A stretch of DNA of 64,000 nt from Dehalococcoidia bacterium (GTDB lineage: Bacteria > Chloroflexota > Dehalococcoidia > Bin125), in the NCBI GenBank assembly GCA_963663235.2, contig CAXXNO010000008.1:96001-160000 (forward strand), given 5' to 3'. Under the pieces are notes generated by a model. It was not told the DNA's origin, ran no database searches, and saw nothing but the letters and a program-made list of their open reading frames with translations. The position numbers and the translations under genes were made by a program. Positions 18,843 to 33,548 of the stretch are shown here, one piece after another; positions within the stretch are counted from its first letter, which is position 1; each line of letters opens with the position of its first letter.

Positions 18843-20315
18843 GTGACCGCATCACAGCGCCACGTGGTGGTGGTCGGTGCCGGCAATGCCGCGTTGTGCG
18901 CGGCTCTCTCGGCGCGCGAGCAGGGCGCTCGCGTTACCGTGCTGGAGAAGGCGCCGCGCGAGGAGCGCGGCGGCAACACGTTCTTCAGCGGCGGCGGCTT
19001 TCGCTTCCCGTACGACGACGTCGACACGATCCGGGAACTGATCCCCGACCTTAGCGATGACGAACTCCGCAGCATCGATGTCGGCGCCTACCCGGCCTCC
19101 CAGTTTTACGCCGACCTTGCTCGTGTCACCGACGGCCTCATCGACCCCGGACTCGCGGACACGCTGGTCCGCCAGGCCTATCCCACCATGCGCTGGCTGC
19201 GGGAACAGGGCGTGCGCTGGGTGCTGATGTACGGCCGGCAGGCGAACCGGGTGGAGGGCAAATTAGTCTTCTACGGGGGGATGGTCGTCGAGGCCGTCGG
19301 CGGTGGCGCTGGCCTCTCGGACGGCTTGTTCGCTGCGGCGGAACGCACTGGCATCGACCTACGCTATGAGGCCAAGGCGAGCGGCTTGCTCCGCGATGGC
19401 CCCCGCGTCGTCGGAGTAATCGTGCGGACCTCCACCGCCGACGAGGAGCTCGCGGCCGACGCCGTCGTGCTGGCTGCGGGCGGCTTTGAGGCCAACGCGG
19501 AGATGCGCGCCCGGTACCTGGGGCCCGGCTGGGATCTGGCCAAGGTGCGCGGCGCTCGCTTCAACACGGGAGACGCCATCCGCGCCGCTATCGATGTCGG
19601 CGCGCAGCCGCACGGCCACTGGTCGGGGGCGCACGCGGTCGCCTGGGACCTCAACGCTCCGCCCACAGGCAACCGCATCGTGGGCGATCTGTACCAAAAG
19701 CACTCGTATCCATACGGCATCATGGTGAACATCGCTGGGGAACGCTTTGTGGATGAGGGAGCGGACCTCCGCAACTACACGTATGCGAAGTACGGTCGCG
19801 CCATTCTGGAGAACCCGCATCGGGTGGCGTTCCAGATCTTTGATCAACAAGCGGTGCCTCTCCTGCGTGACGAATACCGAGTGCGCTACGCCACCAAGGC
19901 GGAAGCGGACACGATCGTCGAGTTGGCCGAGAAGCTCGGCATCGATGCGGGAGGCCTCAGCCGCACCATCGCGACATTCAACGCCGCGTGCCGCCCTGGG
20001 GACTTCCACCCCTCCGCCCTGGACGGCGTGCGGACGCACGGCATCACGCCGCCAAAGTCGAACTGGGCCCGACCGCTCGATACCCCGCCCTTCCTGGGCT
20101 TCACGGTGACGTGCGGGATCACGTTCACCTTCGGCGGTTTGAAGATTGATGCCCGCAGCGCGCAAGTGCTGGACACGGAGGATCGCCTCATCCCTGGCCT
20201 CTACGCCGCGGGCGAACTGGTGGGCGGGCTCTGGTACAACAACTACGCGGGCGGCTCCGGGCTCATGGCGGGCGCGGTCTTTGGCCGGATCGCGGGGCGC
20301 TCGGCGGTGCAGTAG
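18843..20315 (+). CDS. tcuA: FAD-dependent tricarballylate dehydrogenase TcuA/CobZ-family oxidoreductase
   Basis: VVGAGNAA, RGGN, GGFEAN, YPYGIMVN..GERFVDEG, GITFTFGG, GLYAAGE, NY.GGSGL motifs. Confidence 0.82.
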   Translation: MTASQRHVVVVGAGNAALCAALSAREQGARVTVLEKAPREERGGNTFFSGGGFRFPYDDVDTIRELIPDLSDDELRSIDVGAYPASQFYADLARVTDGLIDPGLADTLVRQAYPTMRWLREQGVRWVLMYGRQANRVEGKLVFYGGMVVEAVGGGAGLSDGLFAAAERTGIDLRYEAKASGLLRDGPRVVGVIVRTSTADEELAADAVVLAAGGFEANAEMRARYLGPGWDLAKVRGARFNTGDAIRAAIDVGAQPHGHWSGAHAVAWDLNAPPTGNRIVGDLYQKHSYPYGIMVNIAGERFVDEGADLRNYTYAKYGRAILENPHRVAFQIFDQQAVPLLRDEYRVRYATKAEADTIVELAEKLGIDAGGLSRTIATFNAACRPGDFHPSALDGVRTHGITPPKSNWARPLDTPPFLGFTVTCGITFTFGGLKIDARSAQVLDTEDRLIPGLYAAGELVGGLWYNNYAGGSGLMAGAVFGRIAGRSAVQ

Positions 20316-20374
20316 CGCACGACTAGCCTCGCCCACACTCGATCTCTACTATTCGAGCAGCCCTCGACCTTGAC

Positions 20375-21373
20375 GTGCTGGAGCATCCCATGCAGGTCAC
20401 CCCCAATGTCCGCGTGGTGCAGGTTCCCGAAGAAGAGCCGATGCGCCCGCGCTCCACGAACATCTACCTCGTCGGCACGGACCAGGTCATGTCGATCGAT
20501 TCTGGCGAAGCGATCGATAAGTTCAAGTGGATGCTGCGCGGTTACCTGGCGGCCATCGAGCGCACGGAGATCGCGCTGGCGGGGATTACCCACCACCACT
20601 ACGACCACAGCGGGAACTTGAAGGATCTGCGGGAGGCGCTGCACGCGGATGTCCTGATCCCCGAGGCCGGCATCGATCTCTTGGCGGGCCGGCTCCCGGA
20701 GAACGGGGTGCAGACGATCACCGACGGCAAGGTCATTGACCTCGGCGCGGGGGGGAAACTCCGCGTCATCACCACGCCGGGCCACAGCGTCGATTCCGTC
20801 TGCTACTACTTGGAGGAAGACGGTGTGCTCTTCACGGGCGACACACTGTTGGGCGTCGGCACCACAACGGTCCAGGACCTCGCCGCGTACCGCTCGTCGT
20901 TGCGGACCCTGGTGGAGCTCCCCAACCTGCAGGTCATCTGCCCCGGCCACGGGCCGCTCGTACACGACGCGCGCGAACGGCTCCGCTCTTACATCGATCA
21001 CCGAAACGTGCGAGAAGAGCAGATCCTTCAGATGCTGCAGAGCGGCGGCCCAACGACCAGTTGGGACATCATGCTCAAGCTGTATCCGGATGTTGATAAG
21101 CGGCTGCGGCGGGCGGCGGACGGAAACGTCCGCGCCCATCTGACGCAACTCGAGCACGAAGGGCGAGTCCGCGTGCATCCCGGCAAGGAGCGGAAGGAGA
21201 ACCCGGTCAAGCTGGCAGGAGAGCGCGCCTTGGAGCGGGCGCGGCGCGAGATCGCGACTCGGGGCAGGCGCATCGACGCGCAGGAACGCGGGCGGGCGCT
21301 GGCGCGACAGGAGAGCCCGCCGACCGAGCAGTGGGCGCAGCCCCCGCGCTATGAACTGTCGGGCCAAAACTAA
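20375..21373 (+). CDS. MBL-fold metallo-hydrolase (LACTB2-like) with C-terminal winged helix
   Basis: THHHYDH, TPGHS.D, LFTGD, PGHG, YIDHR..RE.QI motifs. Confidence 0.85.
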   Translation: MLEHPMQVTPNVRVVQVPEEEPMRPRSTNIYLVGTDQVMSIDSGEAIDKFKWMLRGYLAAIERTEIALAGITHHHYDHSGNLKDLREALHADVLIPEAGIDLLAGRLPENGVQTITDGKVIDLGAGGKLRVITTPGHSVDSVCYYLEEDGVLFTGDTLLGVGTTTVQDLAAYRSSLRTLVELPNLQVICPGHGPLVHDARERLRSYIDHRNVREEQILQMLQSGGPTTSWDIMLKLYPDVDKRLRRAADGNVRAHLTQLEHEGRVRVHPGKERKENPVKLAGERALERARREIATRGRRIDAQERGRALARQESPPTEQWAQPPRYELSGQN

Positions 21374-21390
21374 CGCCGCGGTGGACGCGG

Positions 21391-23247
21391 GTGGGAAGCC
21401 GTACGGAGTTGTCCTTGAGGTCGACGAACGCAAACACTGGCTCCGGCAGTTCGATCGATCCAGTGCAGCTTCTCGTTATGGCCAATCGTATTGACGGCAT
21501 CACTCGCGAGATGACAAATACCCTCGTCCGGACCGCCCGGTCCGGAACCCTCGCCTCCCGCGACTTGTCCACCTCCATCTCCACCGCCGCTCATGAGCTC
21601 TTCTCTGCCCCTGAAGGCCTCCCCGTCCACGTCTACGGCTCCGGCCTCCTCTGCGAAGCCATGGCCACGATCCACCCCGACTTCCAGGAAGGCGACGCCT
21701 TTCTCCACAACGACCCCTACCTCGGCAACACCCACGCCGCCGACCACACTATCCTGGTGCCCGTTTTCTATGAGGGCGAGCACGTCTTTACGACCTGCGT
21801 CAAAGCGCACCAAGCGGACATCGGCGACGCCCTTCCGACGACCTACATGCCCAAGGCGGTGGACGTGTACGCCGAGGGCGCCTTGATCTTTCCCTGCGTC
21901 CGTATTCAGGAGCACTACCAAGACATCCCGGACATCATCCGCATGTGCGAGAAACGGATCCGTGTCCCCGAGGTCTGGTACGGCGACTATCTGGCCATGA
22001 TTGCGGCAGCGCGCGTCGGTGAGCAGCGCATCAGAGAATTCTGCGCCAAGTTCGGCCTGAGGACGGTGAAGGCCTTCGTGCGTGAGTGGCTGGACTACTC
22101 GGAGCGCCTCACCGAGGCTGCCATCCGACGCCTCCCTGTCGGCCGCCTTTACGCCCACACGACCTTCGATCCCTTCCCTTTCCTCCCCGAGGGCCTCGAA
22201 CTCCAAGCCACCATCGACGTCGACCCGGCCGCCGGCCACGTCACCGTAGACTTGCGCGACAACGCCGATTGCACTCCCACCGGGCTCAACCTGAGCCGCG
22301 CCACTGCCATGAACGCCGGCATCTCCGGCATCATTACTGTGCTCGACTCGATGCGCGACGTGGAGACCCAGGTCCCCGACAACGCCGGGACCTTCCGCCG
22401 CATCCACGTCCTGCTACGTGAGAACTGCGTCGTCGGCATTCCCGTTCACCCCACCTCCTGCTCCATGGCTACCGGCACGATCGCGTCTCACATCGAGGGC
22501 ATGATCGATGCCGCCTTCGGCCGTCTGGCCGACGGCATCGGCCTGGCGGAGCCGTGCCGGGGACAGGGGCCGCATATCGGCGTCGTGTCCGGCTTCAATC
22601 GGCGCCGCAACGAACCCTACATGCTGCAACTGTTCAGCGGCACCGCCGGCGGTCCCGCCAGTCCCGATACCGACGGCTGGCTCACCTACCAATCCCCTCC
22701 CGCCGCCGGGCTCATGTACATTGATGAGTCCGAGGTGATCGAGCAGAAGTATCCCTTCGTCATCTTCGAGATGCGGGTCCGGCCGGACTCCGAAGGCGCG
22801 GGCCGCCAACGCGGCGCACCCGGCTGCATCTCCGTGTTCGGCCCCCTCTACGACCCGCAGGAGGTCCACTACGCGCTCGATGGAATGGTCAACGTCCCGC
22901 AGGGCGTGCAAGGGGGCGGCGCGGCCCGAGGGCCGGCGGCGCGGCTGATCGACCGCCAGGACGCGACCCACGATCTGCCGGACATCGTTGGCGAACAGCT
23001 GCTGCAAGCCGGAGAGCGCATCATCTCGCTCTCGTCGGGTGGGGGCGGCTACGGCGACCCGCTCACCCGGGCCCCGGACGCCGTTCTCCGTGACGTCATC
23101 GAAGGTTACATCACCCTCGACCGCGCTCGCGATGCTTACGGCGTGTCGATTGAGGGTGACCCTACACGGGTCGAGACGCTCTCGGTTGATGCCGAGACCA
23201 CGCAAGCCCAGCGCGCCGGAGCTACGACTGCTCCCCAACCGTCCTGA
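21391..23247 (+). CDS. Hydantoinase B/oxoprolinase family protein
   Basis: IDPV, RTARS, NDPY.G.TH..D, HQADIG, EG...P, DSEGAG..RG, GGGGYGDP motifs. Start may be TTG 21415. Confidence 0.9.
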   Translation: MGSRTELSLRSTNANTGSGSSIDPVQLLVMANRIDGITREMTNTLVRTARSGTLASRDLSTSISTAAHELFSAPEGLPVHVYGSGLLCEAMATIHPDFQEGDAFLHNDPYLGNTHAADHTILVPVFYEGEHVFTTCVKAHQADIGDALPTTYMPKAVDVYAEGALIFPCVRIQEHYQDIPDIIRMCEKRIRVPEVWYGDYLAMIAAARVGEQRIREFCAKFGLRTVKAFVREWLDYSERLTEAAIRRLPVGRLYAHTTFDPFPFLPEGLELQATIDVDPAAGHVTVDLRDNADCTPTGLNLSRATAMNAGISGIITVLDSMRDVETQVPDNAGTFRRIHVLLRENCVVGIPVHPTSCSMATGTIASHIEGMIDAAFGRLADGIGLAEPCRGQGPHIGVVSGFNRRRNEPYMLQLFSGTAGGPASPDTDGWLTYQSPPAAGLMYIDESEVIEQKYPFVIFEMRVRPDSEGAGRQRGAPGCISVFGPLYDPQEVHYALDGMVNVPQGVQGGGAARGPAARLIDRQDATHDLPDIVGEQLLQAGERIISLSSGGGGYGDPLTRAPDAVLRDVIEGYITLDRARDAYGVSIEGDPTRVETLSVDAETTQAQRAGATTAPQPS

Positions 23248-23271
23248 CGATGTGCTGAGAGGAAGTGGATC

Positions 23272-23673
23272 ATGGCGGAAATGTTGAAGGTCGGACGATC
23301 CGACACCCTGGAGCGCCTGGTCACACCCGAATTGACCGCCGACCGCTTCGGGAACCCCGGTGTGCCGGTCTTTGCTTCACCGGCGCTCATTGGGCTGCTG
23401 GAGGAGACCGCGATCAAGTGCGTCGCTCCAACCCTTGAAGAAGGCCAGGGCACGGTGGGTACGCGGCTGGATGTGCAGCACATGGCGCCGACGCCTGTCG
23501 ACATGAAGGTCACCGCCCGCGCCGAACTGACGGAGGTGGACGGTCGCCGACTCGTTTTCTCAGTGGAAGCGCACGACGAGCGAGAACAGATTGCCAGGGG
23601 CACGCACGAGCGCTTCATCGTCACCTCGATGGAGAAGTTCCTCGCCCGCGCCGCCGAGAAGGGCAACGCTTGA
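23272..23673 (+). CDS. FlK-like hot-dog thioesterase
   Basis: VFASPALIGLLE, TVGT...V.H.APTP, G.HERF motifs. Confidence 0.88.
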   Translation: MAEMLKVGRSDTLERLVTPELTADRFGNPGVPVFASPALIGLLEETAIKCVAPTLEEGQGTVGTRLDVQHMAPTPVDMKVTARAELTEVDGRRLVFSVEAHDEREQIARGTHERFIVTSMEKFLARAAEKGNA

Positions 23674-24653
23674 CGACACGGAACGACGCCGTGCCCGCCG
23701 ACCTGACGCACCGTACCTACGATGTCAACGGCATCCAGATGCACGTGGCAGAACAGGGTGAGGGCCCCGCGGTGATCCTCTGCCACGGCTTCCCGGAGAT
23801 CTGGTACTCCTGGCGCCACCAACTCCCGGCCGTCGCGGACGCGGGTTTCCGCGCCATGGCCCCGGATATGCGTGGCTACGGCCGGACCACCGCCCCACCG
23901 GACTTGGAAGACTATCGCCAAGAGGTCATCTGCGCCGACCTCGTTGCGCTGCTGGATCGCCTGCGGCTGCCTGACGCCGTCTTCGTCGGGCACGATTGGG
24001 GCGGCGTGCTTGTCTGGAACATGGCGCTGCATCACCCTCAGCGTGTCCGGGCCGTGGCTGGGATCAACACCCCCCTCTTCCCGCCGATGCCCGCCAGCTT
24101 CCTGGAGACGATGCGGGAGAATCCGGGCACGTGGGATTACCAGTTTTACTTCCAGGAGCCCGGCATCGCCGAGACCGAGTTGGAACAAGATGTCGGGCGC
24201 ACGTGTCGCCTCATCCTCCGCTCCAGCGATCCAGCCGATGGCTTTGACGTCCTCGCCGGCTTCCACAACGTCCGCGCCCAGGGTGGGGTGCTGATCGGCT
24301 ATCCACAAGACGCGCCGCGCAGCGTCATGTTGAGCGAGGACGATCTGCAGTGCTACGTCGAGCAGTTCCAGAGGACGGGCTTCCGCGGTGGTCTGAACTG
24401 GTACCGCAATCATGATGCCAACTGGGCCTGGGATCAGTCGGTCAAGGAATATGCTGTGCCGCATCCGGCCCTGATGGTGACGGCCGGTCGCGACCCGGTG
24501 CTATCGCCCAAGCTCGCTCGCAAGATGGAGCAGTGGGTTCCCAACCTGACTCGGGGCCATATCGAGCGGTGCGGCCACTGGACTCAGCAGGAGGCGCCGG
24601 ACGAGCTGAACCGCATCTTGATTGAGTGGCTCGGGCGCCTACCGGCGCGGTAG
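23670..24653 (+). CDS. Alpha/beta-fold epoxide hydrolase (EphA-like)
   Basis: HGFPE.WYSWRHQ, APDMRGYG, GHDWG, YQFYFQ, LNWYRN, CGHW.QQE motifs. Confidence 0.9.
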   Translation: MTTRNDAVPADLTHRTYDVNGIQMHVAEQGEGPAVILCHGFPEIWYSWRHQLPAVADAGFRAMAPDMRGYGRTTAPPDLEDYRQEVICADLVALLDRLRLPDAVFVGHDWGGVLVWNMALHHPQRVRAVAGINTPLFPPMPASFLETMRENPGTWDYQFYFQEPGIAETELEQDVGRTCRLILRSSDPADGFDVLAGFHNVRAQGGVLIGYPQDAPRSVMLSEDDLQCYVEQFQRTGFRGGLNWYRNHDANWAWDQSVKEYAVPHPALMVTAGRDPVLSPKLARKMEQWVPNLTRGHIERCGHWTQQEAPDELNRILIEWLGRLPAR

Positions 24654-25460
24654 TTGCTCGCGGGTCTCGTACGCCGCCGCGTCGGTGCCGTTCTCTGGCT
24701 CAAACACCGTGACCTGCCGACGAGCGAAGTCGATCTCGACGTCCACGAAGCTGATGTTGTCGCCCTCGTCCGTCTCCGCCAAGCGGTCTGAGGGATCCAC
24801 GACGATGACGAGCCGGTACAAGCCGTTGAATTCCGCGTGCCCCGCCATGTCATCGACGTCGATCCACTGCTCGCGGAGGACGTAGGGATACGTGTCGCCC
24901 CAGCCCACGGACAGCCCCTGAACATCCTGGTCACACGTGCGGTAGCCACCTTGCGAGGCGGCGCCCTGCTCCCGGTCGATTCGAACTGTGTCCCGGATGC
25001 AGAAGGTCGTCTTCGATATCCGCAGCGGCAGCGCGATGTCCACCGAGCGCGGCTCCAGAATGTAGCGGGCGTATTCGTTAAAGTGAAAATGGTTGTGGCT
25101 CGGGTGCCACGCGACGACACCGCCTCTCCCGGGGACTACGTGGCGCTTGCCCGCCGCCGTGTATGCGATCTGATCGACCAGTTGGATCTCTCCCGTCGGG
25201 CGGCTCGCCTGGACTTCCAGTGGGCCGTCACCATCGTTCCAGGTCGTGGTGGTGAGTCGCAGCACCTCGCGAGTCTCCCCGTTGACCAGGGCCGCGCCGA
25301 AATGGATATCGCTCGCGGGCAGGGCGCGGAGGTTGGGCAGTAGCCAGTCGGAAGCGAATTTCGACTGGGCCGCCGACTCGCCGGCGGCGCTCCACAGTGC
25401 CAGCAGCAGACCGACGACGGCGGACAGCGCCAGCAGCCGTCCGACGGTCGAGTGCCTCAT
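24639..25460 (-). CDS. Secreted lysyl-oxidase-family protein
   Basis: Sec signal peptide (MRHSTVGRLLALSAVVGLLLALWSAA), Cu-binding WHPSHNHFHF, KTTFC.RD, QGLSVGWGDTY, QWID, VDP...LAE.DE.DN. Confidence 0.82.
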   Translation of the reverse strand: MRHSTVGRLLALSAVVGLLLALWSAAGESAAQSKFASDWLLPNLRALPASDIHFGAALVNGETREVLRLTTTTWNDGDGPLEVQASRPTGEIQLVDQIAYTAAGKRHVVPGRGGVVAWHPSHNHFHFNEYARYILEPRSVDIALPLRISKTTFCIRDTVRIDREQGAASQGGYRTCDQDVQGLSVGWGDTYPYVLREQWIDVDDMAGHAEFNGLYRLVIVVDPSDRLAETDEGDNISFVDVEIDFARRQVTVFEPENGTDAAAYETREQLPRR

Positions 25461-25638
25461 CGGTCGCTCCCGTTCTCCGTCGTCCGCGCCTCCCTTTGGC
25501 GGCGATCGGGAAAGCCAGCGTACCGCATGCTGCCGAGCGGAGACATCCGGTCGCTTCAGATCACGAGCTCTCGATTTGCTACATTCTGCGGCGACGGTGC
25601 GCGTCCACCCTATCGGCGCCGCCAAACGGAGCATCGCC

Positions 25639-26460
25639 GTGTCCAAATCTCCCAACGCCGTTCAGGACGCGATCAAAGGTGCGTGGACCCGTGGAGCCCA
25701 CGCGTACGACCACGATGCCGGCCACGGCCTTGCGACGCCAGCCGTCGAGCGCGCCTGGAGCGATGTGCTGGAAGACGCCCTGGACGCCGCCCCACTTGAT
25801 GTCCTGGACGTGGGAACGGGCACCGGCCTCCTGGCCGTCATCGCGGCGAAATTGGGACATCGCGTCACGGGCGTAGATTTCACCCCGGCCATGCTGGAAC
25901 GCGGCGCACACCGTGCGGAGCGCGCTGGCGTGCATGTTGCCTGGTGCGAGGGCGATGGGATGGACCTTCCCTTCCGCCCAGACTCCTTCGACGCGGTCGT
26001 CAGCCGTCACGTCCTGTGGACCCTCACGGATCCAGCCGCCGCTTTCCGTGAGTGGGTCCGTGTCACGCGGCCGGGTGGCCGGGTGGTCTGGTTCGACGGA
26101 CTCTACAGCGGCGGCTGGCAGACCAAGCTGCGGGGTGGGCTGGCGCGCACTCTCCGCTGGCTCCAGCGTCGCCCCGACCACGCCGGCTCCCACGGCTACC
26201 CGGACCATGCTATCGAAGCGCTGCCCCTGCGCGGGATCCGCTCCCCCGAGCCGGTGCGCGCCTTGCTGCACCATCTTGGCATCGACGATGCAACATTCGA
26301 GCACCTCACTGAGGTGCCGCGCGCGGAGCAGCACGGAGAACCGCTGCACAAGCGCGTCGCGGGCGTCGAGCGGCGATACATGGGCACGTTCCACGTCACG
26401 GCGGAACTCAAGCGGCGCTTTGGGCCGTCCTCGGAGCGCGCCGACAGCCCGTCCGACTAA
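25639..26460 (+). CDS. Class I SAM-dependent methyltransferase
   Basis: VLDVGTGTG, LPF..DSFDAVVSRH.LW, RV.RPGG motifs; GTG after GGAG. Confidence 0.88.
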   Translation: MSKSPNAVQDAIKGAWTRGAHAYDHDAGHGLATPAVERAWSDVLEDALDAAPLDVLDVGTGTGLLAVIAAKLGHRVTGVDFTPAMLERGAHRAERAGVHVAWCEGDGMDLPFRPDSFDAVVSRHVLWTLTDPAAAFREWVRVTRPGGRVVWFDGLYSGGWQTKLRGGLARTLRWLQRRPDHAGSHGYPDHAIEALPLRGIRSPEPVRALLHHLGIDDATFEHLTEVPRAEQHGEPLHKRVAGVERRYMGTFHVTAELKRRFGPSSERADSPSD

Positions 26461-26545
26461 AGTCGGAGACCAAAGTCCGCGCTCCGACCGAGCACCAGTT
26501 GCGCCGTTCGGTCGATTAGAGCCGCGCGCCCGCGTGCTATCAAGG
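26452..26545 (+). promoter_or_regulatory. Conserved upstream module copy 1: palindrome TCCGACTAAAGTCGGA + GACCAAAGTC + TGCTATCAAGG
   Basis: Near-identical blocks at the same spacing recur at 28486-28580, upstream of the paralogous gene. Confidence 0.65.
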
Positions 26546-26715
26546 TGTGGGTGCGATACGCGGCACACGGCCCGCCCGAGTGGGACGAGCAGAGGAACAG
26601 ATGGCGATCGCGTTGACCCAATCGCCCGTTGCGGCACGAATCGAACCCGGGCTCAGTTGGATGCAGAGCGGTCGCGGGTCCTGCCCCGCCCTTCGTTGAT
26701 GATTGGTCGGAGACG

Positions 26716-28440
26716 GTGAAGGCAGAAGAACGCAACGTCGACGACCCCTCGATGACGAGGCGTCGCTTCCTGACGCGGGCAGGCAAGGCCGGCGTGGGCC
26801 TCGCATCGCTGGCGGCCGTTGGCCCGGCGATCGCCGCTGCCACGTCGAAGACCACGCAGGCGGCCCACTTGGATGAGCACGCTTGCCGCAATCTCACGGA
26901 CCTAGGGGAGATCATCGCCCGTGTGCCCGCCCCCGTGGGCAACGCCGGCAACCCAGACATCGAGGTCATCCGCGATGGCAACAAGCCCCCCGCCGGCAAC
27001 GCCGACCCTTGGGGCCAGTACGATACCTTCGACGGCGCCGACCGTGCCGCCGAGGACTGGATCGGCTACGCCTACCCCTCGGCCCACACCTTCCATCAGG
27101 TAGTCTTCCAGGAAGGGCTGCACTTCGACGACGGCGGCTGGTTCGAGTCGCTCACGGTGCAAGTCCGCCGGAGCGGGACCTGGGCGCCAGTGCGTGGTCT
27201 GTCCATCTCCCCGGCCTATCCCTTTGCCAACGATGGAGTCTCCTACGAGACCTACACGCTGACGTTCGATGAGATCGCCGGCGACGGCATCCGCATCTTC
27301 GGCGCCCCCGGCGGCGCCGCTGACTTCATCTCCGTGGGTGAGCTGGAGATCTTCGGCGACTGCGATGGCCTACCGTCCGGCGACTCCACGTCACCGGCAT
27401 CACAGGGATGCACGAACTTGACCCACGATGGAGAGATCATCGCCCGCGTGACTTCTCCCACCGGCGGCGGCAACCGCAACATCGAGGTGATCCGAGATAG
27501 CGACTTCCCGTCCGTCGGCAGCAGCGACTCCTCGCGCCAATACGACACCTTCGACGGCCGCAACAGCGCCGCCGAAGATTGGATCGGCTACGCGTACCCC
27601 TCGGAGCAGACCTTCAACCACGTCATCTTCCAGGAAGGGCTGCACTTCTGGAACGGCGGCTGGTTCGAGTCGCTCACGGTGCAGGTCCGCCAGGGCGGGA
27701 CCTGGGTGCCGGTGCGTGGCCTGTCCATCTCCCCGGCCTACCCCTTCGCCGACAACGGCGTCTCGTTTGAGACCTATAGTCTTGCGTTCAACGCAATCGC
27801 CGGCGACGGCATCCGCATCATCGGCGCTCCCGGCGGCAGCGCCGGCTTCATCTCCGTTGGGGAGCTGGAGGTCTTCTCGGGCGACTGCTGGCAGCCGAGC
27901 GACCACTCGCCCACTAACCATTCGCAGAGCAACCAATCGCGGAGGCTCATCCACGAACCCCTCGCCGTTCCATACCGCGTGGCTGGGCCGTTTGCCTCGG
28001 TCGTGTCCGGCCGGTTGCATCGCGGCGTCGACCTTCTCGTCGGGGAGAACAGCGGGCTGCTTGCGACACTGGCTGGCGCAGCGCGCGCTCACGTCTCACC
28101 GACGACGAGCGGCGGCGAATCCAAATGGCTGGAACTCGACGCGAAGATTCGTCGGATCATCAAGATCGGGGACAACGAGTTCGTTCGCACCGAACCCGTC
28201 GAGATTCGCTATTACCACCTCAACGACTGGGTCGGGGACTTCCCTCGCGACGTCGTGCAAGGGGAGGTGATCGGCCTCTCCGGGGCGGGCGGCCTTCTTG
28301 ATGTGCCCCATTGCCACTTCGAGGTGTGGACCCGCCGATTTGGACAGATGGTGCCAACGGACCCGTATACCCTCCATCCTGAATGGCCCCGCGGCGAACA
28401 CACGTATCTCACCGCTGATGGGCGTTCGTACGATGACTGA
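26716..28440 (+). CDS. Tat-exported protein: two Cys-bracketed discoidin/galactose-binding-like domains plus C-terminal M23 peptidase
   Basis: TRRRFL Tat motif; repeats at 26884-27363 and 27409-27888; M23 motifs HRGVD, YYHL, PHCHFEV, DP. Confidence 0.8.
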   Translation: MKAEERNVDDPSMTRRRFLTRAGKAGVGLASLAAVGPAIAAATSKTTQAAHLDEHACRNLTDLGEIIARVPAPVGNAGNPDIEVIRDGNKPPAGNADPWGQYDTFDGADRAAEDWIGYAYPSAHTFHQVVFQEGLHFDDGGWFESLTVQVRRSGTWAPVRGLSISPAYPFANDGVSYETYTLTFDEIAGDGIRIFGAPGGAADFISVGELEIFGDCDGLPSGDSTSPASQGCTNLTHDGEIIARVTSPTGGGNRNIEVIRDSDFPSVGSSDSSRQYDTFDGRNSAAEDWIGYAYPSEQTFNHVIFQEGLHFWNGGWFESLTVQVRQGGTWVPVRGLSISPAYPFADNGVSFETYSLAFNAIAGDGIRIIGAPGGSAGFISVGELEVFSGDCWQPSDHSPTNHSQSNQSRRLIHEPLAVPYRVAGPFASVVSGRLHRGVDLLVGENSGLLATLAGAARAHVSPTTSGGESKWLELDAKIRRIIKIGDNEFVRTEPVEIRYYHLNDWVGDFPRDVVQGEVIGLSGAGGLLDVPHCHFEVWTRRFGQMVPTDPYTLHPEWPRGEHTYLTADGRSYDD

Positions 28441-29935
28441 TGCGGTTGTTGATCTCCTCGACCTGCACCGCCGCGCTGCGGGCCATTCGACCAAAGTCGG
28501 AGACCAGAGTCCGTGCTTTGACCGACCCCCCAATTGCGCCGTTCGATGGATGGGAACGCTTGGCCCGCCTGCTATCAAGGTGAGCACGGGCTCACGCCTG
28601 GCGGCCCACGCCGCCGGTTGACGAAGACAGGCAGGTGGAGTCAGTCATTCTCAGCTTCAACTGCCGGTCTGAGACCCGAATCCGAGTGGGCCTTGCGGCG
28701 GCGCGCTCCGATGCTACGGTTTGTGTTCGTTCGATGATCGGAGGGCGACGGTGAAGGACGAGAAGCGCAGCGACCGCGGAGTCTCGCTGACGAGACGTCG
28801 ATTCCTGAAGCGCACGGGCAAGGCCACCGTAGGCCTCGCCTCGCTGATGGCCGTCGGCCCAGCGATCGTTGCCTCCACATCCAAGTCCGTCCATGCGGGT
28901 CATGCTGATGGGCATGCGTGTCTTAATCTCACGGACCTGGGGGAGATCGTCGCCCGCGTGCGTGTGCCCGTGGGCAGCGCCGGCAACCGCGACATCGAGA
29001 TCATCCGCGACGGGGACAAGCCGCCCACTGGCACTGCTGATCCCCTGCGCCAGTACGACACCTTCGACGGCATCGATATATCTGCTGAGGATTGGATCGG
29101 CTACGCCTACCCCTCGACGCACACCTTCCATCAGGTGGTGTTCCAAGAGGGGATGCACTTCTGGGACGGTGGCTGGTTCGAATCGCTCACGGTACAGGTC
29201 CGCCAGGGTCGGACGTGGGTGCCGGTCACGGGACTTTCGATCTTGCCGGACTACCCTTTCGCCGACAACGGCGTTTCGTATGAGAGCTATACCCTGACGT
29301 TCGATGAGGTCACCGGCGACGGCATCCGCCTCGTCGGTGCCCCCGGCGGCTTCTCGGACTTCATCTCTGTCGCCGAGCTTGAGATCTTCGGCGACTGCGA
29401 GCGGGACTCGCGCAATGACCCGTCGCAGCACTCGCCGGCGGTCGTCCCGGAGGAATGCACTAACTGGACCCAGGACGGGCAGATCATCGCTCGCGTGACC
29501 TCGCCGACCGGCGGAGGCAACCACGACATCGAGGTGATTCGGGACGGCAACCTGCCGCCCGTCGGCAGCGGAGACTCCTCGCGCCAGTACGACACGCACG
29601 ATGGCGCGAACAGCGCCGACAATGACTGGATCGGATACGAGTACTCGTCGGATCGGACGTTTGACCACATCGTCTTCCAGGAGGGAAGGCAGTTCTGGAA
29701 CGGCGGTTGGTTCGAAACGCTCACCGTGCAGGTTCGCCAAGGTGGGAGTTGGCAGTCCGTGAGCGGGCTCTCGATCTCGCCGGACTACCCGTTCGCCGAC
29801 AACGACGTCTCCTTCGAGATCTACACGCTCATCTTCGACGAGATCACCGGCGACGCGATCCGTATCTTTGGTGCTCCAGGCGGGAGCCACGATTTCATCT
29901 CCGTGGCTGAGTTGGCGGTCTACTGGGGCAATTGC
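26884..29935 (+). repeat. Four intragenic copies of a ~480-bp/160-aa domain
   Basis: Copies at 26884-27363, 27409-27888, 28919-29398 and 29456-29935; shared C.N.T..G.I.ARV, QYDT.DG, DWIGY.Y, FQEG, GGWFE, GAPGG, FISV.EL...C. Confidence 0.9.
28486..28580 (+). promoter_or_regulatory. Conserved upstream module copy 2: TTCGACCAAAGTCGGA + GACCAGAGTC + TGCTATCAAGG
   Basis: Matches 26452-26545 with conserved spacing (84 vs 83 nt to the TGCTATCA box). Confidence 0.65.
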
Positions 29936-30076
29936 TGGGAGCACAGCTACAACTCGAACCATAACTCTTCCAACAACAGCAACTCACAGAGCAACCACTC
30001 GAACAGCAGCAGCTCGAACAGCAGCAGCTCGAACAGCCACTCGAAGAGCAAGAGCTCGCGGAGCAGTCGGTCATGA
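28751..30076 (+). CDS. Tat-exported paralog: two discoidin-like domains plus Ser/Asn/His- then Ser/Arg-rich tail (frame continues past TGA to 30196)
   Basis: TRRRFLK Tat motif, VHA cleavage site, the same repeated domains and a low-complexity C-terminus; GTG after GGAGGG. Confidence 0.8.
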   Translation: MKDEKRSDRGVSLTRRRFLKRTGKATVGLASLMAVGPAIVASTSKSVHAGHADGHACLNLTDLGEIVARVRVPVGSAGNRDIEIIRDGDKPPTGTADPLRQYDTFDGIDISAEDWIGYAYPSTHTFHQVVFQEGMHFWDGGWFESLTVQVRQGRTWVPVTGLSILPDYPFADNGVSYESYTLTFDEVTGDGIRLVGAPGGFSDFISVAELEIFGDCERDSRNDPSQHSPAVVPEECTNWTQDGQIIARVTSPTGGGNHDIEVIRDGNLPPVGSGDSSRQYDTHDGANSADNDWIGYEYSSDRTFDHIVFQEGRQFWNGGWFETLTVQVRQGGSWQSVSGLSISPDYPFADNDVSFEIYTLIFDEITGDAIRIFGAPGGSHDFISVAELAVYWGNCWEHSYNSNHNSSNNSNSQSNHSNSSSSNSSSSNSHSKSKSSRSSRS

Positions 30077-30166
30077 AGCCGGAGTTCACGAAGTAGGAGC
30101 CGGTCGCGCACCCGCCATTCGCGGAGCAGCCGGTCGCACAGCCGGAGCTCACGAAGTAGGAGCCGG
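30059..30166 (+). repeat. Imperfect 45-bp direct repeat encoding RS-dipeptide tail
   Basis: cggagcagtcggtcatgaagccggagttcacgaagtaggagccgg (30059-30103) vs cggagcagccggtcgcacagccggagctcacgaagtaggagccgg (30122-30166). Confidence 0.8.
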
Positions 30167-30340
30167 GGCCGGAGCGGCCGCCACTCGAGGTCGTAGCGCC
30201 GAAACGCTGTAATGTCAGGTAAGCTTCCTTCTGTACCGGTCGGCCGAGCCCCTGGCTCGGCCGGTTCCGCGTCCGTGTTGGATCAGGACCGATCGAAGGC
30301 CGCCTCGTGGGCCGAAGAGCGGCCCACGGACGGAGCGACG

Positions 30341-31480
30341 GTGGTACGGCTGTTCCGAAATTCCGATGTGACGTTACGGGCGATGGCTGATGGGTCGGCG
30401 ATAGCGATCGACGAAGCCCAGCGCGAGGCCCATGCGTTCAACCCGGAGGCGGTCGCCATATGGAACGCACGCTCATCGTGGACCGAAGATGAGCTGGAGG
30501 CGTGGCTGCGAGAGAACGGCCTGCCTGCCCCCGCAGCCCGCGAGCTGGCGCACCGGTTTCTGGGGCAGTTACGCGCTGCCGGGCTGTTCCACGAAGCCGA
30601 AGCCCCTCCGGCTGTCGCTTCGCAGGCAGGCCACGCGGCAGCCAATGTCTCCCATTACCGCATGTGGAAGACCGACATGCGGGTGCGCATTCCCGACGCC
30701 GAGATCGAACAGTACATCCATCGGTTGTGTCATCAGTTCGCCTCGCAGCCGTCCGAGAACGCTGTGGAGTTCGAAATTCGTCCTGGCCGCGACGGTCGGT
30801 GGAAGATCGTGCGAGACGGCGAAGTTGTCGAGGAGCGCGGTTCGGCTATCACTGCGGCTCGCGAGCTCGAGTGGTACATGGTGGAGACGGCGACCCACGC
30901 GGAGCGCTATTTCGCGCACTTTCACGCATCCGCGCTGACCAGGAACGGCCGGACGCTGCTGATTCCCGGAAAGTCCGGGTCCGGCAAGTCCACGCTCTGC
31001 CTGGTGCTCTGCACGCACGGCTTCGAGCTGCTTGGCGATGATGTCATCTTCATGGACCCTGTCTCCGGCGCCATCCACCCATTTCAGCGCGCGTTGCACG
31101 TCCACGATGATGCCATCCCCCTCTTGCAGGATGCCGGATTCCCATATGACCCCGCGCTCCACCTTCCCAATTTCTTGGAGGTGGACGCGCTGGCAGCCTG
31201 GCGCACCAGCCCAAGCCCGCCCCTTTCACACATCCTGTTCGTGGACTGGGACGAAGAAGGCCCGGTCGAGGTCGCGCCGATCACGCAGGCCGAGGCAGCG
31301 GTGGCGATCCGTCCCTTCTCCCACAATCTGAAGCGGCGACTGGACGGCGGCTGGCCGACTTTGCAGCGCATCGTGGACCATACCCAATGCGCCCGCCTGC
31401 TGCGCGGTCAAGACTTGCTGAGCGCGGCTGAGGCGATCCGCGATCTGATCGACAGCGAACCGCCGGCTTCAGACCGCTGA
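30341..31480 (+). CDS. PqqD/RRE domain fused to HPr-kinase-related P-loop kinase
   Basis: N-terminal PqqD-like H.FN..A..IW...T..EL...L.....FL.QL..AGL; C-terminal FHASAL, G.SGSGKSTL Walker A, LLGDD. ORF is open from 30212; GTG 30341 follows GGAG. Confidence 0.8.
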   Translation: MVRLFRNSDVTLRAMADGSAIAIDEAQREAHAFNPEAVAIWNARSSWTEDELEAWLRENGLPAPAARELAHRFLGQLRAAGLFHEAEAPPAVASQAGHAAANVSHYRMWKTDMRVRIPDAEIEQYIHRLCHQFASQPSENAVEFEIRPGRDGRWKIVRDGEVVEERGSAITAARELEWYMVETATHAERYFAHFHASALTRNGRTLLIPGKSGSGKSTLCLVLCTHGFELLGDDVIFMDPVSGAIHPFQRALHVHDDAIPLLQDAGFPYDPALHLPNFLEVDALAAWRTSPSPPLSHILFVDWDEEGPVEVAPITQAEAAVAIRPFSHNLKRRLDGGWPTLQRIVDHTQCARLLRGQDLLSAAEAIRDLIDSEPPASDR

Positions 31481-32743
31481 CACGGGCTGGTTCGTCGCCG
31501 GGTTCATCTCGAACGGGCTGGGAAGATCCAGCTCCTCGGCGATCTCGCGCACGGCGGGCAGCACCTCGTCGCCCATGAGGCGCAGGCTGCGCATCGTGTC
31601 GTCGTGGGTCATCGCGCCGTCGCCATCCCAGAAGATGATGCTGCCCGGCCGCAAGTACTCCAGGACGTAGCGGAGCTGGGCGATCACCGTTGGCGGTGTC
31701 CCCGCGATAATCGTGTGCTTCTCAATCTGGTCCTCATAGGTGCCCGCAAAGTCTTGATCCGGCTTGACCTGCCCCGGTTGGAGGGCTGGACGGGTCGGCT
31801 TCTTCCGGCCACGGGAGAACGCAGCCCCCCACGTCTTGATCGTTGGCAGAACCTCCGTGCGCGAAGTCATGCCCGGAAGGTTCTGTAGGAAGCCGCGAAC
31901 CTGCCCCTGGTTTCCTTCCAGGAACGGGTTGCTGGGCCCCTTCAGGAACTTGCGCGCCGTCGCCTCGGCAAGCTCTTCGGTCTCGTCCACGTGCACCTTG
32001 AGCAGGTAGCCGGTGTGCTGAGGGCCCGCCTCGTAGCCCGCCTCGCGCGCGCACTGCGCGTAGTACTGGAACGACTGACGGGTTGGCTCCATCTCCGTGG
32101 CCAGCATCAGGAACGGGTAACGCCGCTCCGCCGCCCAGGCGACCGTGTTCTTGCTGAGGACGCCCGGGATCCAGATCGGCGGGTGCGGCTGCTGATATGG
32201 GCGCGGCCATGGGTTCACGTAGCGGTAATCGAAGTGTTCGCCCTCCCAGCGGAACGGGCCCGGCGTGGTCCACGCCTTGATGATGAGGTCGTGCGCCTCC
32301 TGGAACCGCTCCCAGTTGTAGGGCGAGGGCGAGTTATGGGTCAGGCTCTCGCGGCCGGTCCCTCGCACCCAGCCGCTGACCAAGCGGCCGCGGGAGATGT
32401 TATCGATCGTGGCTAGCGTTTCCGCCAGCCACAGCGGGTCGTCCCAGATCGGCAGGACGTTGCCCGCCAGCACGATCTTGGCGCGCTTTGTGATCCGCGC
32501 CAAGATCGACGCCTCCACGTTCATCACGGCGCCCATGCAGCCGGGCATGCTGTGGTGCTCGTTCAGCATGAGCCCATCGAAGCCCATCTCTTCCGCGTAG
32601 ACTTTTTCGTCCAGGTAGCGGTTGTACAGCTCCGCCCCCACCTGCGGGTCGTAGTCGCGATTGCTTTTCGCCAGATCCAAGGTGTTGATGTATTCGCCGC
32701 CAGCGTCCTGGTACGGGCGTTCCGTGAAATAACCGATGAACAT
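31469..32743 (-). CDS. LLM-class flavin-dependent oxidoreductase
   Basis: GFDG...NEHH, GRL.SGWVRG, WPRP.QQPHPPIW motifs. Confidence 0.9.
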   Translation of the reverse strand: MFIGYFTERPYQDAGGEYINTLDLAKSNRDYDPQVGAELYNRYLDEKVYAEEMGFDGLMLNEHHSMPGCMGAVMNVEASILARITKRAKIVLAGNVLPIWDDPLWLAETLATIDNISRGRLVSGWVRGTGRESLTHNSPSPYNWERFQEAHDLIIKAWTTPGPFRWEGEHFDYRYVNPWPRPYQQPHPPIWIPGVLSKNTVAWAAERRYPFLMLATEMEPTRQSFQYYAQCAREAGYEAGPQHTGYLLKVHVDETEELAEATARKFLKGPSNPFLEGNQGQVRGFLQNLPGMTSRTEVLPTIKTWGAAFSRGRKKPTRPALQPGQVKPDQDFAGTYEDQIEKHTIIAGTPPTVIAQLRYVLEYLRPGSIIFWDGDGAMTHDDTMRSLRLMGDEVLPAVREIAEELDLPSPFEMNPATNQPVSAV

Positions 32744-32765
32744 GGTGCGTCCCTCCCGTGCGCCG

Positions 32766-33548
32766 CTATCTCGCCGCGACGTGCGCGCGGATCAGCCGCG
32801 CGATCGTCTCCGGCTCCTCCAGCTCCACAACGTGGCCAGCACCCTTCACCACCTCAAGACGGGCGTTGGGTAAGGCCTGAGCGTACAGTTCGCCACAGTT
32901 GCTGGGCACGATCCGGTCGTGTTCACCCCAGATGATCAGCGACGGCGTTTCCACCTCGCGCAACAGGGGCGGCAGCCGCCGGTTGTACATGTAAGGCCGC
33001 CAGGTCACGCGTGCCGTCATTTCTCGGCTGAGCTCCCACAGTTGTTCCAGTTCGGGTGACTCATCCTCACCAAAGAACTCGGCGTAGGCGGCGTCGTCGC
33101 GAAAAGATGACTTCAAATAATGTTCGTCCTTGAAGAGCATCTGGTCCATGATCTCGCCTTCGTCCGGGCGGATCCCGGCGGCGCCAACGAGGACCAGCGC
33201 CCGCAATCGGCCCGGGTTGATCGTCGCCATCTCGGCGGCGATGAACCCGCCGAAGCCGAGGCCGACCAGCGTGACGCCGTCCAGCGCGAGGCGGTCCAGG
33301 ACGCGGTTCATCAGGATAGCGAGGTCCCGGGGGTCACGCGCCCAGACCGGGCGCTCGGATTGGCCGTAGCCCGGAAGGTCCGGGACCCAGACGGCGAACT
33401 GGGTCGCCAAGGCCTCATGGAACGGCAGCCAGCCGAGGTTCCCCGTCGAGTGATGCAGGACCACCGCCGGCTCCCCTTGCCCGCCCTGCAGCAGGTGTAC
33501 CGACAGGTCCGCGACCCGTACCGATGTTTCCGCCCAGGTGTCGCTCGT
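32766..33548 (-). CDS. Alpha/beta-hydrolase-fold protein lacking the nucleophile Ser
   Basis: GGQG.P..VLH, PDLPGYGQS, LVGLGFGG elbow, WGE.D, GAGH....E.P motifs. Start uncertain (ACG 33548 after GGAG, or GTG 33590). Confidence 0.85.
   Translation of the reverse strand, partial: TSDTWAETSVRVADLSVHLLQGGQGEPAVVLHHSTGNLGWLPFHEALATQFAVWVPDLPGYGQSERPVWARDPRDLAILMNRVLDRLALDGVTLVGLGFGGFIAAEMATINPGRLRALVLVGAAGIRPDEGEIMDQMLFKDEHYLKSSFRDDAAYAEFFGEDESPELEQLWELSREMTARVTWRPYMYNRRLPPLLREVETPSLIIWGEHDRIVPSNCGELYAQALPNARLEVVKGAGHVVELEEPETIARLIRAHVAAR

Follow-up and report, generated by a model that had tools for sequence, protein, structure and literature searches.

What does a kinase act on when it carries its own peptide-recognition domain, lacks the partner genes that usually accompany such enzymes and is encoded next to two predicted exported proteins, one of them ending in a serine-rich tail? 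The question is raised by a 64,000-nucleotide stretch of a Dehalococcoidia bacterium genome (assembly GCA_963663235.2, contig CAXXNO010000008.1, positions 96,001 to 160,000 of the forward strand; hereafter the window), in which three open reading frames (ORFs), g1, g2 and g3, follow one another on the plus strand. Kinases related to HPr kinase (HprK) and guided by a RiPP recognition element (RRE; RiPP, a ribosomally made peptide that is modified post-translationally) are known from lasso peptides and, since 2026, also from linear polyphosphorylated peptides (LPPs). With modest confidence we propose that the locus comprises two functional modules side by side in a strain-variable island. The first would be g1 and g2, tandem paralogues exported via the twin-arginine translocation (Tat) pathway, each with two galactose-binding-like F5/8-type-C modules; the second would be g3, an orphan variant of the RRE-guided peptide kinases. 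The locus is a clean minimal case, a fusion without the usual partners beside a Ser-ended tail that resembles a substrate. The three genes are:

26716-28440 (ORF from 26629), plus strand: g1, 574 aa from GTG 26716; the longest ORF begins at TTG 26629
28751-30076 (ORF from 28721), plus strand: g2, 441 aa from GTG 28751
30341-31480 (ORF from 30212), plus strand: g3, 379 aa from GTG 30341; alternative starts ATG 30212 and ATG 30383

The original prediction saw in these genes a system in which g3 phosphorylates the Ser-rich tail of g2 before export. Its domain calls (Tat, RRE/PqqD and HprK-related kinase) stood, while the function claimed for the tail went unsupported. The start it assigned to the system, 26452, falls in the non-coding region upstream of g1.

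The evidence on g3 concerns three parts of the protein:

about 30341-30595, plus strand: RRE/PqqD domain
about 30596-30640, plus strand: disordered linker (residues 86-100 in the AlphaFold2 model)
about 30641-31477, plus strand: HprK-related kinase, with the P-loop at 30968-30994

That the N-terminal domain is PqqD-like had been set beforehand as a test of the prediction. At E ≤ 10, PF05402 finds one match across the genome, located in this domain (window 30404-30586; profile positions 4-66 of 67; 15 bits against a cut-off of 23.4). The same family is matched at E ≤ 0.01 by 12 of 17 aligned fusion homologues (best E 7.9e-17), and Hpr_kinase_C by 11 of the 17. A profile made from the g3 N-domain together with RREs fused or adjacent to related kinases matched 9x90_B (9e-21), TbiB1 (3e-19) and PqqD 3g2b (9e-7) in the PDB. 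A profile of the fusions matched TbiB1/TfuB1 on the N-domain and the HPr kinase 3tqf on the P-loop region (2.3e-8). AlphaFold2 produced a two-part model of full-length g3 (pLDDT 87.8), with a beta-beta-beta-alpha-alpha-alpha N-domain and a kinase part that matches the PEPCK/HprK fold. When modelled alone (pLDDT 91.7), the N-domain shows strands and then helices H35-43, H49-58 and H63-79; the model thus has the three-stranded antiparallel sheet and three helices of the PqqD/RRE winged helix. Its best Foldseek match is leader-bound TbiB1 (5v1v, TM 0.70/0.75), followed by TfuB1, by the RREs of LynD, TruD, CteB and PbtF, and then by PqqD 5sxy. The alignments behind the two models were shallow, at 17 and 11 rows.

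For the kinase part, the best NCBIfam match is TIGR04352, HprK-related kinase A (E 5.2e-22; profile positions 9-276 of 280; 78.3 bits against a cut-off of 200). In the genome-wide search with this profile g3 scored 76.9 bits and was the only HprK_rel_A-like gene. The motifs originally read from the translation, HASAL (within HFHASAL), GKSGSGKST and LLGDD, are all present, and the H, G, K and T are invariant across the 17-sequence alignment of fusions. Together, the Pfam and PDB profile matches, the two AlphaFold models and the TbiB1 fold match indicate that g3 is a real fusion of an RRE/PqqD fold with an HprK-related P-loop Ser kinase, as had been predicted. We infer that g3 is active as a kinase and captures its substrate through the RRE.

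Fusions of this kind are common in databases. A search of 1.84 billion representatives returned 6501 relatives of g3 at E ≤ 0.001, just 15 of them at E ≤ 1e-30, and among the best 150 representatives at least 15 clusters are fusions that align from the first residues. In the Atlas, 24 of the 30 neighbours of g3 are clusters in which PqqD is annotated in at least three members and at least 10%. When relatives of the g3 N-domain were sought among RREs encoded on their own, by a word-based search of limited reach, none of the 62 candidates reached E ≤ 0.01. Twenty-four same-family genomes gave no match to the kinase, and among 16 same-class genomes weak hits alone were obtained, in two. Within its own clade the fusion is kept at 49-53% identity, in P0002 and P0131. 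P0136 and P0138 are fusions as well, and P0003-P0008 and P0132-P0135 carry the kinase alone.

What g3 might do is suggested by two characterized systems. In the excerpted text of PMC9266682, the kinases PadeK, ThcoK, SyanK and PsmK (poly)phosphorylate the C-terminal Ser hydroxyl of a lasso precursor, and a His, a Lys and an Asp-Asp pair are described as essential or catalytic. The analogy to these paeninodin-type enzymes drawn originally is sound: g3 has the HprK-like P-loop, the His-Lys-Asp-Asp residues and a PqqD-fold RRE, and the adjacent g2 ends in Ser. In contrast to the paeninodin type, RRE and kinase form one polypeptide in g3, no precursor A, B2, cyclase or NTP_transf_5 was found, and the sole candidate substrate near g3 is the 441-aa Tat protein g2. 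In the LPP family, described mainly from Bacillota in the available part of PMC13381572 (Popov et al., Nat Commun 2026), the set consists of the RRE protein LppB, the kinase LppK, the SipW-like peptidase LppS, LppN and LppD. The precursors span 35-200 aa and carry a YxxP-type leader, and the kinase adds several phosphates on core Ser 3. The g3 locus resembles it in pairing an RRE with an HprK-like kinase in the absence of lasso enzymes, the LPP product being a polyphosphorylated Ser. It differs in that a SipW-type peptidase, an NTP transferase, an MsbA-like pump and the LPP leader motif are missing from the locus; in addition, the Ser modified in LPPs is residue 3 of the core and not part of a C-terminal tail.

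A third resemblance is to the 'HPr-rel-A system' of NCBIfam, given that TIGR04352 is the best match of g3 and that PqqD_rel_X (TIGR04353) matches the N-domain weakly (14.8 against 35 bits; residues 74-125 of the long ORF). Unlike that system, g3 has its parts fused, its scores lie far below the cut-offs and the NTP_transf_5 neighbour is missing. Our literature search found nothing on 'HprK-related kinase' or on fused RRE-kinase proteins. On these comparisons, g3 would be cytoplasmic, its RRE would dock a stretch of a peptide or protein substrate, and the HprK-like domain would then move phosphate from ATP onto a Ser hydroxyl. We propose this mechanism because separate RRE and kinase proteins act in this way in the paeninodin-type lasso and LPP systems.

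The genes that would be expected with such a kinase were searched for in the genome, which is 92% complete; this applies to all genome-wide absences reported here. NTP_transf_5 (PF14907) has no match at E ≤ 0.01 and lasso B2 (NF033537) has none. At 22-36 kb of the window, the segment to which the cyclase search was limited, there is no B2, macrolactam cyclase or short precursor ORF, in agreement with the original statement that short precursor, cyclase and lasso-type peptidase are lacking at the locus. No SipW-type peptidase, NTP transferase or MsbA-like pump was found at the g3 locus, and the only above-cut-off match to a SipW-type peptidase lies on another contig, amid TasA-like genes (G000:C4:434803-435222). 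A reduced form of the LPP leader motif YxxPxVLxHQxIxFETxxS gave one six-frame match in the genome and none at 18-36 kb of the window, and matches to the looser [YW]xxPx[LVIAFY] in the island were in wrong frames or within folded domains only. The spacer between g2 and g3 contains no credible small ORF. Because a nucleotidyltransferase, lasso enzymes, a linked leader peptidase and a short precursor were all not found, we regard g3 as an orphan.

One candidate for a hidden precursor was a minus-strand ORF at 30152-29895 (85 aa, Cys/Ser/Gly-rich), which we rejected because it reads the opposite strand of an AGC-rich repeat. It lacks a Shine-Dalgarno site, its G+C content at third codon positions (GC3) is high in the spacer part only, its codon use over the tail is poor, and it is without one 63-nt unit in metagenomic run X4.

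Neighbourhoods of related kinases were compared at 88 other loci, whose kinases are distant relatives at 25-40% identity. Genome contigs gave 42 loci with distant relatives alone, and metagenome contigs gave 44, distant again apart from L046. None has a Ser-rich neighbour (4781 ORFs of at least 60 aa scanned; the few with 14 Ser in 30 residues were short or off-frame), and none of 709 ORFs of at least 150 aa within 3 kb carries a discoidin-like domain or a Tat motif. By profile, an RRE was found fused to or adjoining the kinase at 11 of the 88 loci: as a fusion in L049, L054 and L070, and as a separate adjoining ORF in L036, L037, L040, L042, L044, L050, L077 and L089. NTP_transf_5 lies directly downstream of the kinase in the three loci scanned for it (L054, L077 and L002). 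At L046, a 1764-bp contig with a close relative of g3, an unrelated ORF lies downstream of the kinase in convergent orientation. At 4115-12474 of L040, from a Solirubrobacterales metagenome-assembled genome, stands a complete lasso cluster in which B1, B2 and a cyclase are joined by an ABC exporter and two HprK-related kinases. The genome G031 belongs to the same class as the window's own; there the minus strand of L103 (G031:C244, 6214-10386) encodes PqqD, an HprK-related kinase and a SipW-type signal peptidase I. Next in order, where a precursor might be expected, comes a secreted surface protein of 659 aa containing SdrD-like and DUF11 repeats. This is an LPP-like gene set, and its genome is probably outside Bacillota.

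The other module of the locus is formed by g1 and g2, whose features are:

about 26716-26841, plus strand: g1 Tat signal (motif and hydrophobic stretch)
about 26884-27360 and 27409-27885, plus strand: g1 putative F5/8-type-C modules
about 27886-27951, plus strand: g1 Ser/Asn/His linker, read from the translation
about 27970-28437, plus strand: g1 candidate M23 peptidase domain (PF01551, MepM/Pgp3 models)
about 28751-28876, plus strand: g2 Tat signal
about 28919-29395 and 29456-29932, plus strand: g2 putative F5/8-type-C modules, then the tail; no M23 domain
29942-30073, plus strand: g2 low-complexity tail, 44 aa with 22 Ser, of Ser/Asn/His/Lys/Arg composition, ending ...SRSSRS
30056-30181, plus strand: two tandem 63-nt units spanning the g2 stop TGA at 30074-30076

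The two proteins are paralogues with 71% identity over g2 residues 2-410, and in both a Tat-type motif, T-R-R-R-F-L-(T/K)-R, precedes a hydrophobic stretch. TIGR01409 scores 15.6 bits on g2, below its cut-off of 16.7, and the genome encodes TatC (203.8 bits). From the motif, the hydrophobic region and the genomic TatC, g1 and g2 are predicted Tat substrates, as originally claimed. Each has two modules of about 160 residues. Pfam gave no direct F5/8 hit (E ≤ 1) on g1 or g2; many homologues at 50-60% identity are annotated PF00754/PF22633 in precomputed annotation, and the nearest Atlas clusters of the module are F5/8 type C (0.94). The module is frequent in secreted multidomain proteins across many phyla, and 18 copies of the discoidin-type module are spread over three contigs of this genome.

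The C-terminal stretch of g1 is matched by PF01551 (E 1e-3; 19.7 bits against a cut-off of 28.7; profile positions 43-89 of 96) and by the MepM, ShyA and Pgp3 models, and the zinc-ligand motifs HxxxD (HRGVD) and HxH (HCH) can be read in its translation. Most likely, g1 would be a secreted hydrolase that binds glycan or the cell wall and acts through a C-terminal M23 zinc peptidase. With its HxxxD/HxH motifs, N-terminal binding modules and export signal it resembles secreted M23 (LytM-type) peptidases with carbohydrate-binding modules. It departs from typical LytM-type enzymes in having two putative F5/8-type-C targeting modules and predicted Tat export, and its paralogue g2 has a low-complexity tail in place of the peptidase. 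The simplest history for g2 would be a tandem duplication that included about 95 nt upstream, after which the peptidase was lost and the linker grew. Because the g2 tail starts where the g1 linker stands, the tail would be a g1-type inter-domain linker enlarged by replication slippage, to 44-92 residues among alleles. The original observation of the g2 tail and of a shorter Ser/Asn/His linker at the same place in g1 reads exactly as stated.

The tail is built of 15-nt and related tandem repeats and has an in-frame GC3 of 0.87. Metagenomic runs carry in-frame insertions in it of 15 nt (X14, X15) and 30 nt (X12). The 90%-identity cluster of g2 holds eight distinct alleles, one of 313 aa and seven of full length (441-489 aa); all seven full-length alleles have a C-terminal Ser, in five as ...SRSSRS and in two as ...SGHSGS. 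When all six frames of the genome were scanned for windows dense in Ser, the tail ranked second, with 19 Ser in 30. Two windows of higher or similar density, C11:10542-10811 and C4:734239-734757, were rejected as antisense of acidic Glu/Pro linkers; one of these was the first-ranked window and the other has 15 Ser in 30. Because the top-ranked window is the antisense of an acidic linker, no real coding stretch found in the genome exceeds the g2 tail in Ser density.

Beyond the g2 stop, the frame stays open for 39 further Ser/Arg-rich codons (30077-30193), up to TAG at 30194-30196, and the second 63-nt unit reads CAC at the position matching TGA. Run X4 is without exactly 63 nt (30086-30148), that is one repeat unit. 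The post-stop frame may be an old truncation of a longer Ser/Arg-rich tail or a non-coding repeat. TGA read-through of g2 into this frame was also considered; four metagenomic runs contain no TGA variant of the g2 stop, and five alleles end ...SRSSRS.

All three genes lie in a segment that differs between strains. In G004 and G012, the LLM gene (window 31469-32743) comes immediately after a gene similar to that at window 20243-21433, and about 10 kb including g1 to g3 is absent. By this comparison of gene order, the segment at about 21400-31480 is an accessory or rearranged, strain-variable island. Two nonsense alleles were seen in it. W392* in g1 (window 27891) occurs in run X12 and as 391-aa proteins in two assemblies, with a 487-aa form in a third; Q314* in g2 (window 29690) occurs in run X15, and one assembly encodes the corresponding 313-aa protein alongside a full-length kinase. 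Of the ten strain alleles of g3, nine are full length. In g3, 10 of 11 single-base differences across four runs alter the amino acid. Of 29 single-base differences outside the tail, 25 alter or truncate the protein; several were read on contigs of depth 2-4. Amino-acid segregating sites number 4.1-6.9 per 100 in g3, compared with 2.2-4.4 in five flanking genes and 14.9 in a sixth. Because polymorphism in g3 and the flanking genes is of the same order, we do not conclude relaxed or diversifying selection.

Could g3 act on its neighbour? The only visible substrate candidate is g2, which would be bound via the Ser-ended tail or the region beside the signal peptide, and we consider it doubtful that g3 uses it. 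If so, the RRE would dock g2, and perhaps g1, in the cytoplasm, and the kinase would phosphorylate the Ser-rich tail or polyphosphorylate the C-terminal Ser, after which the protein would leave through Tat; this account of the locus is, in our view, unlikely to be correct. It draws on the adjacency of g1 to g3 on one strand, in a segment absent at the syntenic site of G004 and G012, and on the pairing of the genome's top Ser-dense coding window with its only HprK_rel_A-like gene. All full-length g2 alleles end in Ser despite having two endings, and it is a C-terminal Ser that lasso kinases modify (PMC9266682, excerpted text). LPP precursors reach 200 aa (PMC13381572, available part), and in G031 the PqqD gene, kinase and SipW-type peptidase adjoin the 659-aa secreted protein. 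Tat export would also suit a protein modified in the cytoplasm. However, Ser-rich, discoidin or Tat-motif ORFs accompany the kinase at none of the 88 other loci, so that phosphorylation of the tail before export, as originally claimed, is left with neither direct nor comparative support among relatives at 25-40% identity. The tail varies freely in length and sequence among strains, g1 and g2 have nonsense alleles, the kinase is intact where g2 is truncated, and no [Y/W]xxP-type leader motif occurs outside folded domains. Both g1 and g2 keep their own upstream region of 270-300 nt, and the spacer between g2 and g3, 264 nt here, varies in length among strains, which disfavours a tight operon. 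A weak argument in the same direction is that none of the 120 g2 homologues listed is apparently on the contigs of P0002, P0004 or P0005. A complex prediction of g3 (alignment A3) with g2 residues 1-70 scored 0.00 in two runs without controls and carries no weight either way. The characterized relatives put several phosphates on a single Ser (PMC9266682 and PMC13381572, in the parts available). Known enzymology is therefore a better match for polyphosphorylation at one Ser, most plausibly the C-terminal residue, than for the row of phosphoserines in the tail that was originally suggested. The link between g3 and the g2 tail is kept alive, at low probability, by the genome-unique tail, the terminal Ser and the shared island. 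Its boldest form, a RiPP-type RRE-kinase recruited to the full-size folded g2 to give a (poly)phosphorylated tail or C-terminal Ser, Tat export and a length-variable anionic tail for metal, mineral or wall binding, strikes us as rather improbable. If true, it would carry leader-guided phosphorylation beyond peptides, which reach 200 aa, to exported proteins, place RiPP machinery on an exported protein and offer a new route to secreted bacterial phosphoproteins; if the link to g2 is false, the locus nevertheless points to a small orphan clade among the RRE-kinases.

A substrate other than g2 is about as likely: g3 may serve an unrecognised short precursor in the spacer, in the island or elsewhere, with g1 and g2 as unrelated neighbours, an explanation to which we likewise give a low probability. 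All characterized relatives act on leader-bearing ribosomal peptides (according to the parts available of PMC9266682 and PMC13381572), an RRE is fused to or adjoins the kinase at the 11 loci where the profile found one, and two such kinases belong to the full lasso cluster of L040. The spacer itself offers two reading frames, one open and Ser/Arg-rich on the plus strand, the other the Cys/Ser/Gly-rich minus-strand ORF with its high GC3, but the first contains no start codon (ATG, GTG or TTG) and the second has the defects described above; the single genomic match to the LPP-type leader motif also lies outside 18-36 kb of the window. Somewhat less likely, and improbable overall, g3 is a stranded remnant of a mobile or rearranged segment that has lost its partners and has no present substrate, its adjacency to g2 being due to chance. 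The rearranged island, the missing NTP_transf_5 and lasso B2, the lack of the kinase in the same-family genomes and the predominance of amino-acid changes among the single-base differences in g3 are consistent with such a remnant, whereas the full-length alleles with intact catalytic residues, a level of polymorphism of the same order as in flanking genes and the retention of the fusion in P0002 and P0131 argue for a maintained gene. The two-module reading, with g3 as an orphan RRE-guided kinase, has its own points to answer. The finding of the most Ser-dense coding stretch beside the only HprK-like kinase is a coincidence of about 1 in 1000, by a criterion chosen post hoc, and counts against plain juxtaposition. 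By sequence identity, the 88-locus set lacks the closest clade (45-62% identity: P0002-P0008 and P0131-P0139) save L046, which shows the downstream side only. The orphan status rests on absence from a 92%-complete genome and on ORF inspection, so a precursor may lie elsewhere. Finally, none of the Pfam and NCBIfam scores reaches its curated cut-off, whether for g3, for the M23 domain of g1 or for the Tat signal.

The start sites adopted here agree with database proteins where these exist. GTG 26716 is the start of P0013, and the g2 start agrees with P0297, an identical database allele of 441 aa. For g3, GTG 30341 was chosen because the fusions P0002, P0131, P0136 and P0138 start a few residues before the conserved 'RNP/RNS' strand; ATG 30212 and ATG 30383 are both used by gene callers, and a start at ATG 30383 would remove strands 1-2 of the N-domain. 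Near-identical start contexts had been noted for all three genes. A Shine-Dalgarno site followed by GACGGTG (GGAG..GACGGTG) is indeed present at g2 and g3, whereas g1 has only an overlapping form, GGAGACGGTG. Because the pattern occurs four times in the window against 0.54 expected, the similarity is real, yet it amounts to hardly more than a Shine-Dalgarno site plus GTG.

Further upstream, g1 and g2 share a duplicated block, about 150-250 nt before their starts:

26450-26580, plus strand: upstream block of g1, about 95 nt of which is repeated ahead of g2
28488-28582 (G000:C8:124488-124582), plus strand: second copy, before g2, from alignment and DNA search

A DNA search found only these two copies in the genome (79% identity, query 5-98; next best E 0.014), and the block is probably a duplicated upstream or promoter region. 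A riboswitch or regulatory RNA was considered and ruled out, with two copies only and a fold no better than shuffles (z 0.24). Rfam gave no match at E ≤ 1 over window 24000-33000, and terminator and promoter scans found nothing exceeding shuffles. Twenty sequencing runs from 8 studies were listed as containing this sequence, none of them recorded as RNA.

The SipW-type peptidase on the other contig lies in L115 (G000:C4:430000-445000), together with TasA-like proteins and a 963-aa protein with the same kind of signal; this region also holds a further discoidin-module protein and Tad-pilus-like genes. In the window, the island at about 21400-31480 encodes a hydantoinase-like gene, hydrolases, a secreted lysyl-oxidase-like protein, a methyltransferase and g1 to g3, and the LLM gene downstream of g3 is convergent with it. 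A class I S-adenosylmethionine-dependent methyltransferase is encoded on the plus strand at about 25700-26460, just upstream of g1. Divergent from it, on the minus strand at 24639-25655, is the lysyl-oxidase-domain protein (PF01186, E 6e-12), which has a signal peptide. The g2 tail contains Lys-Ser repeats, and the lysyl-oxidase-domain protein is encoded upstream of g1.

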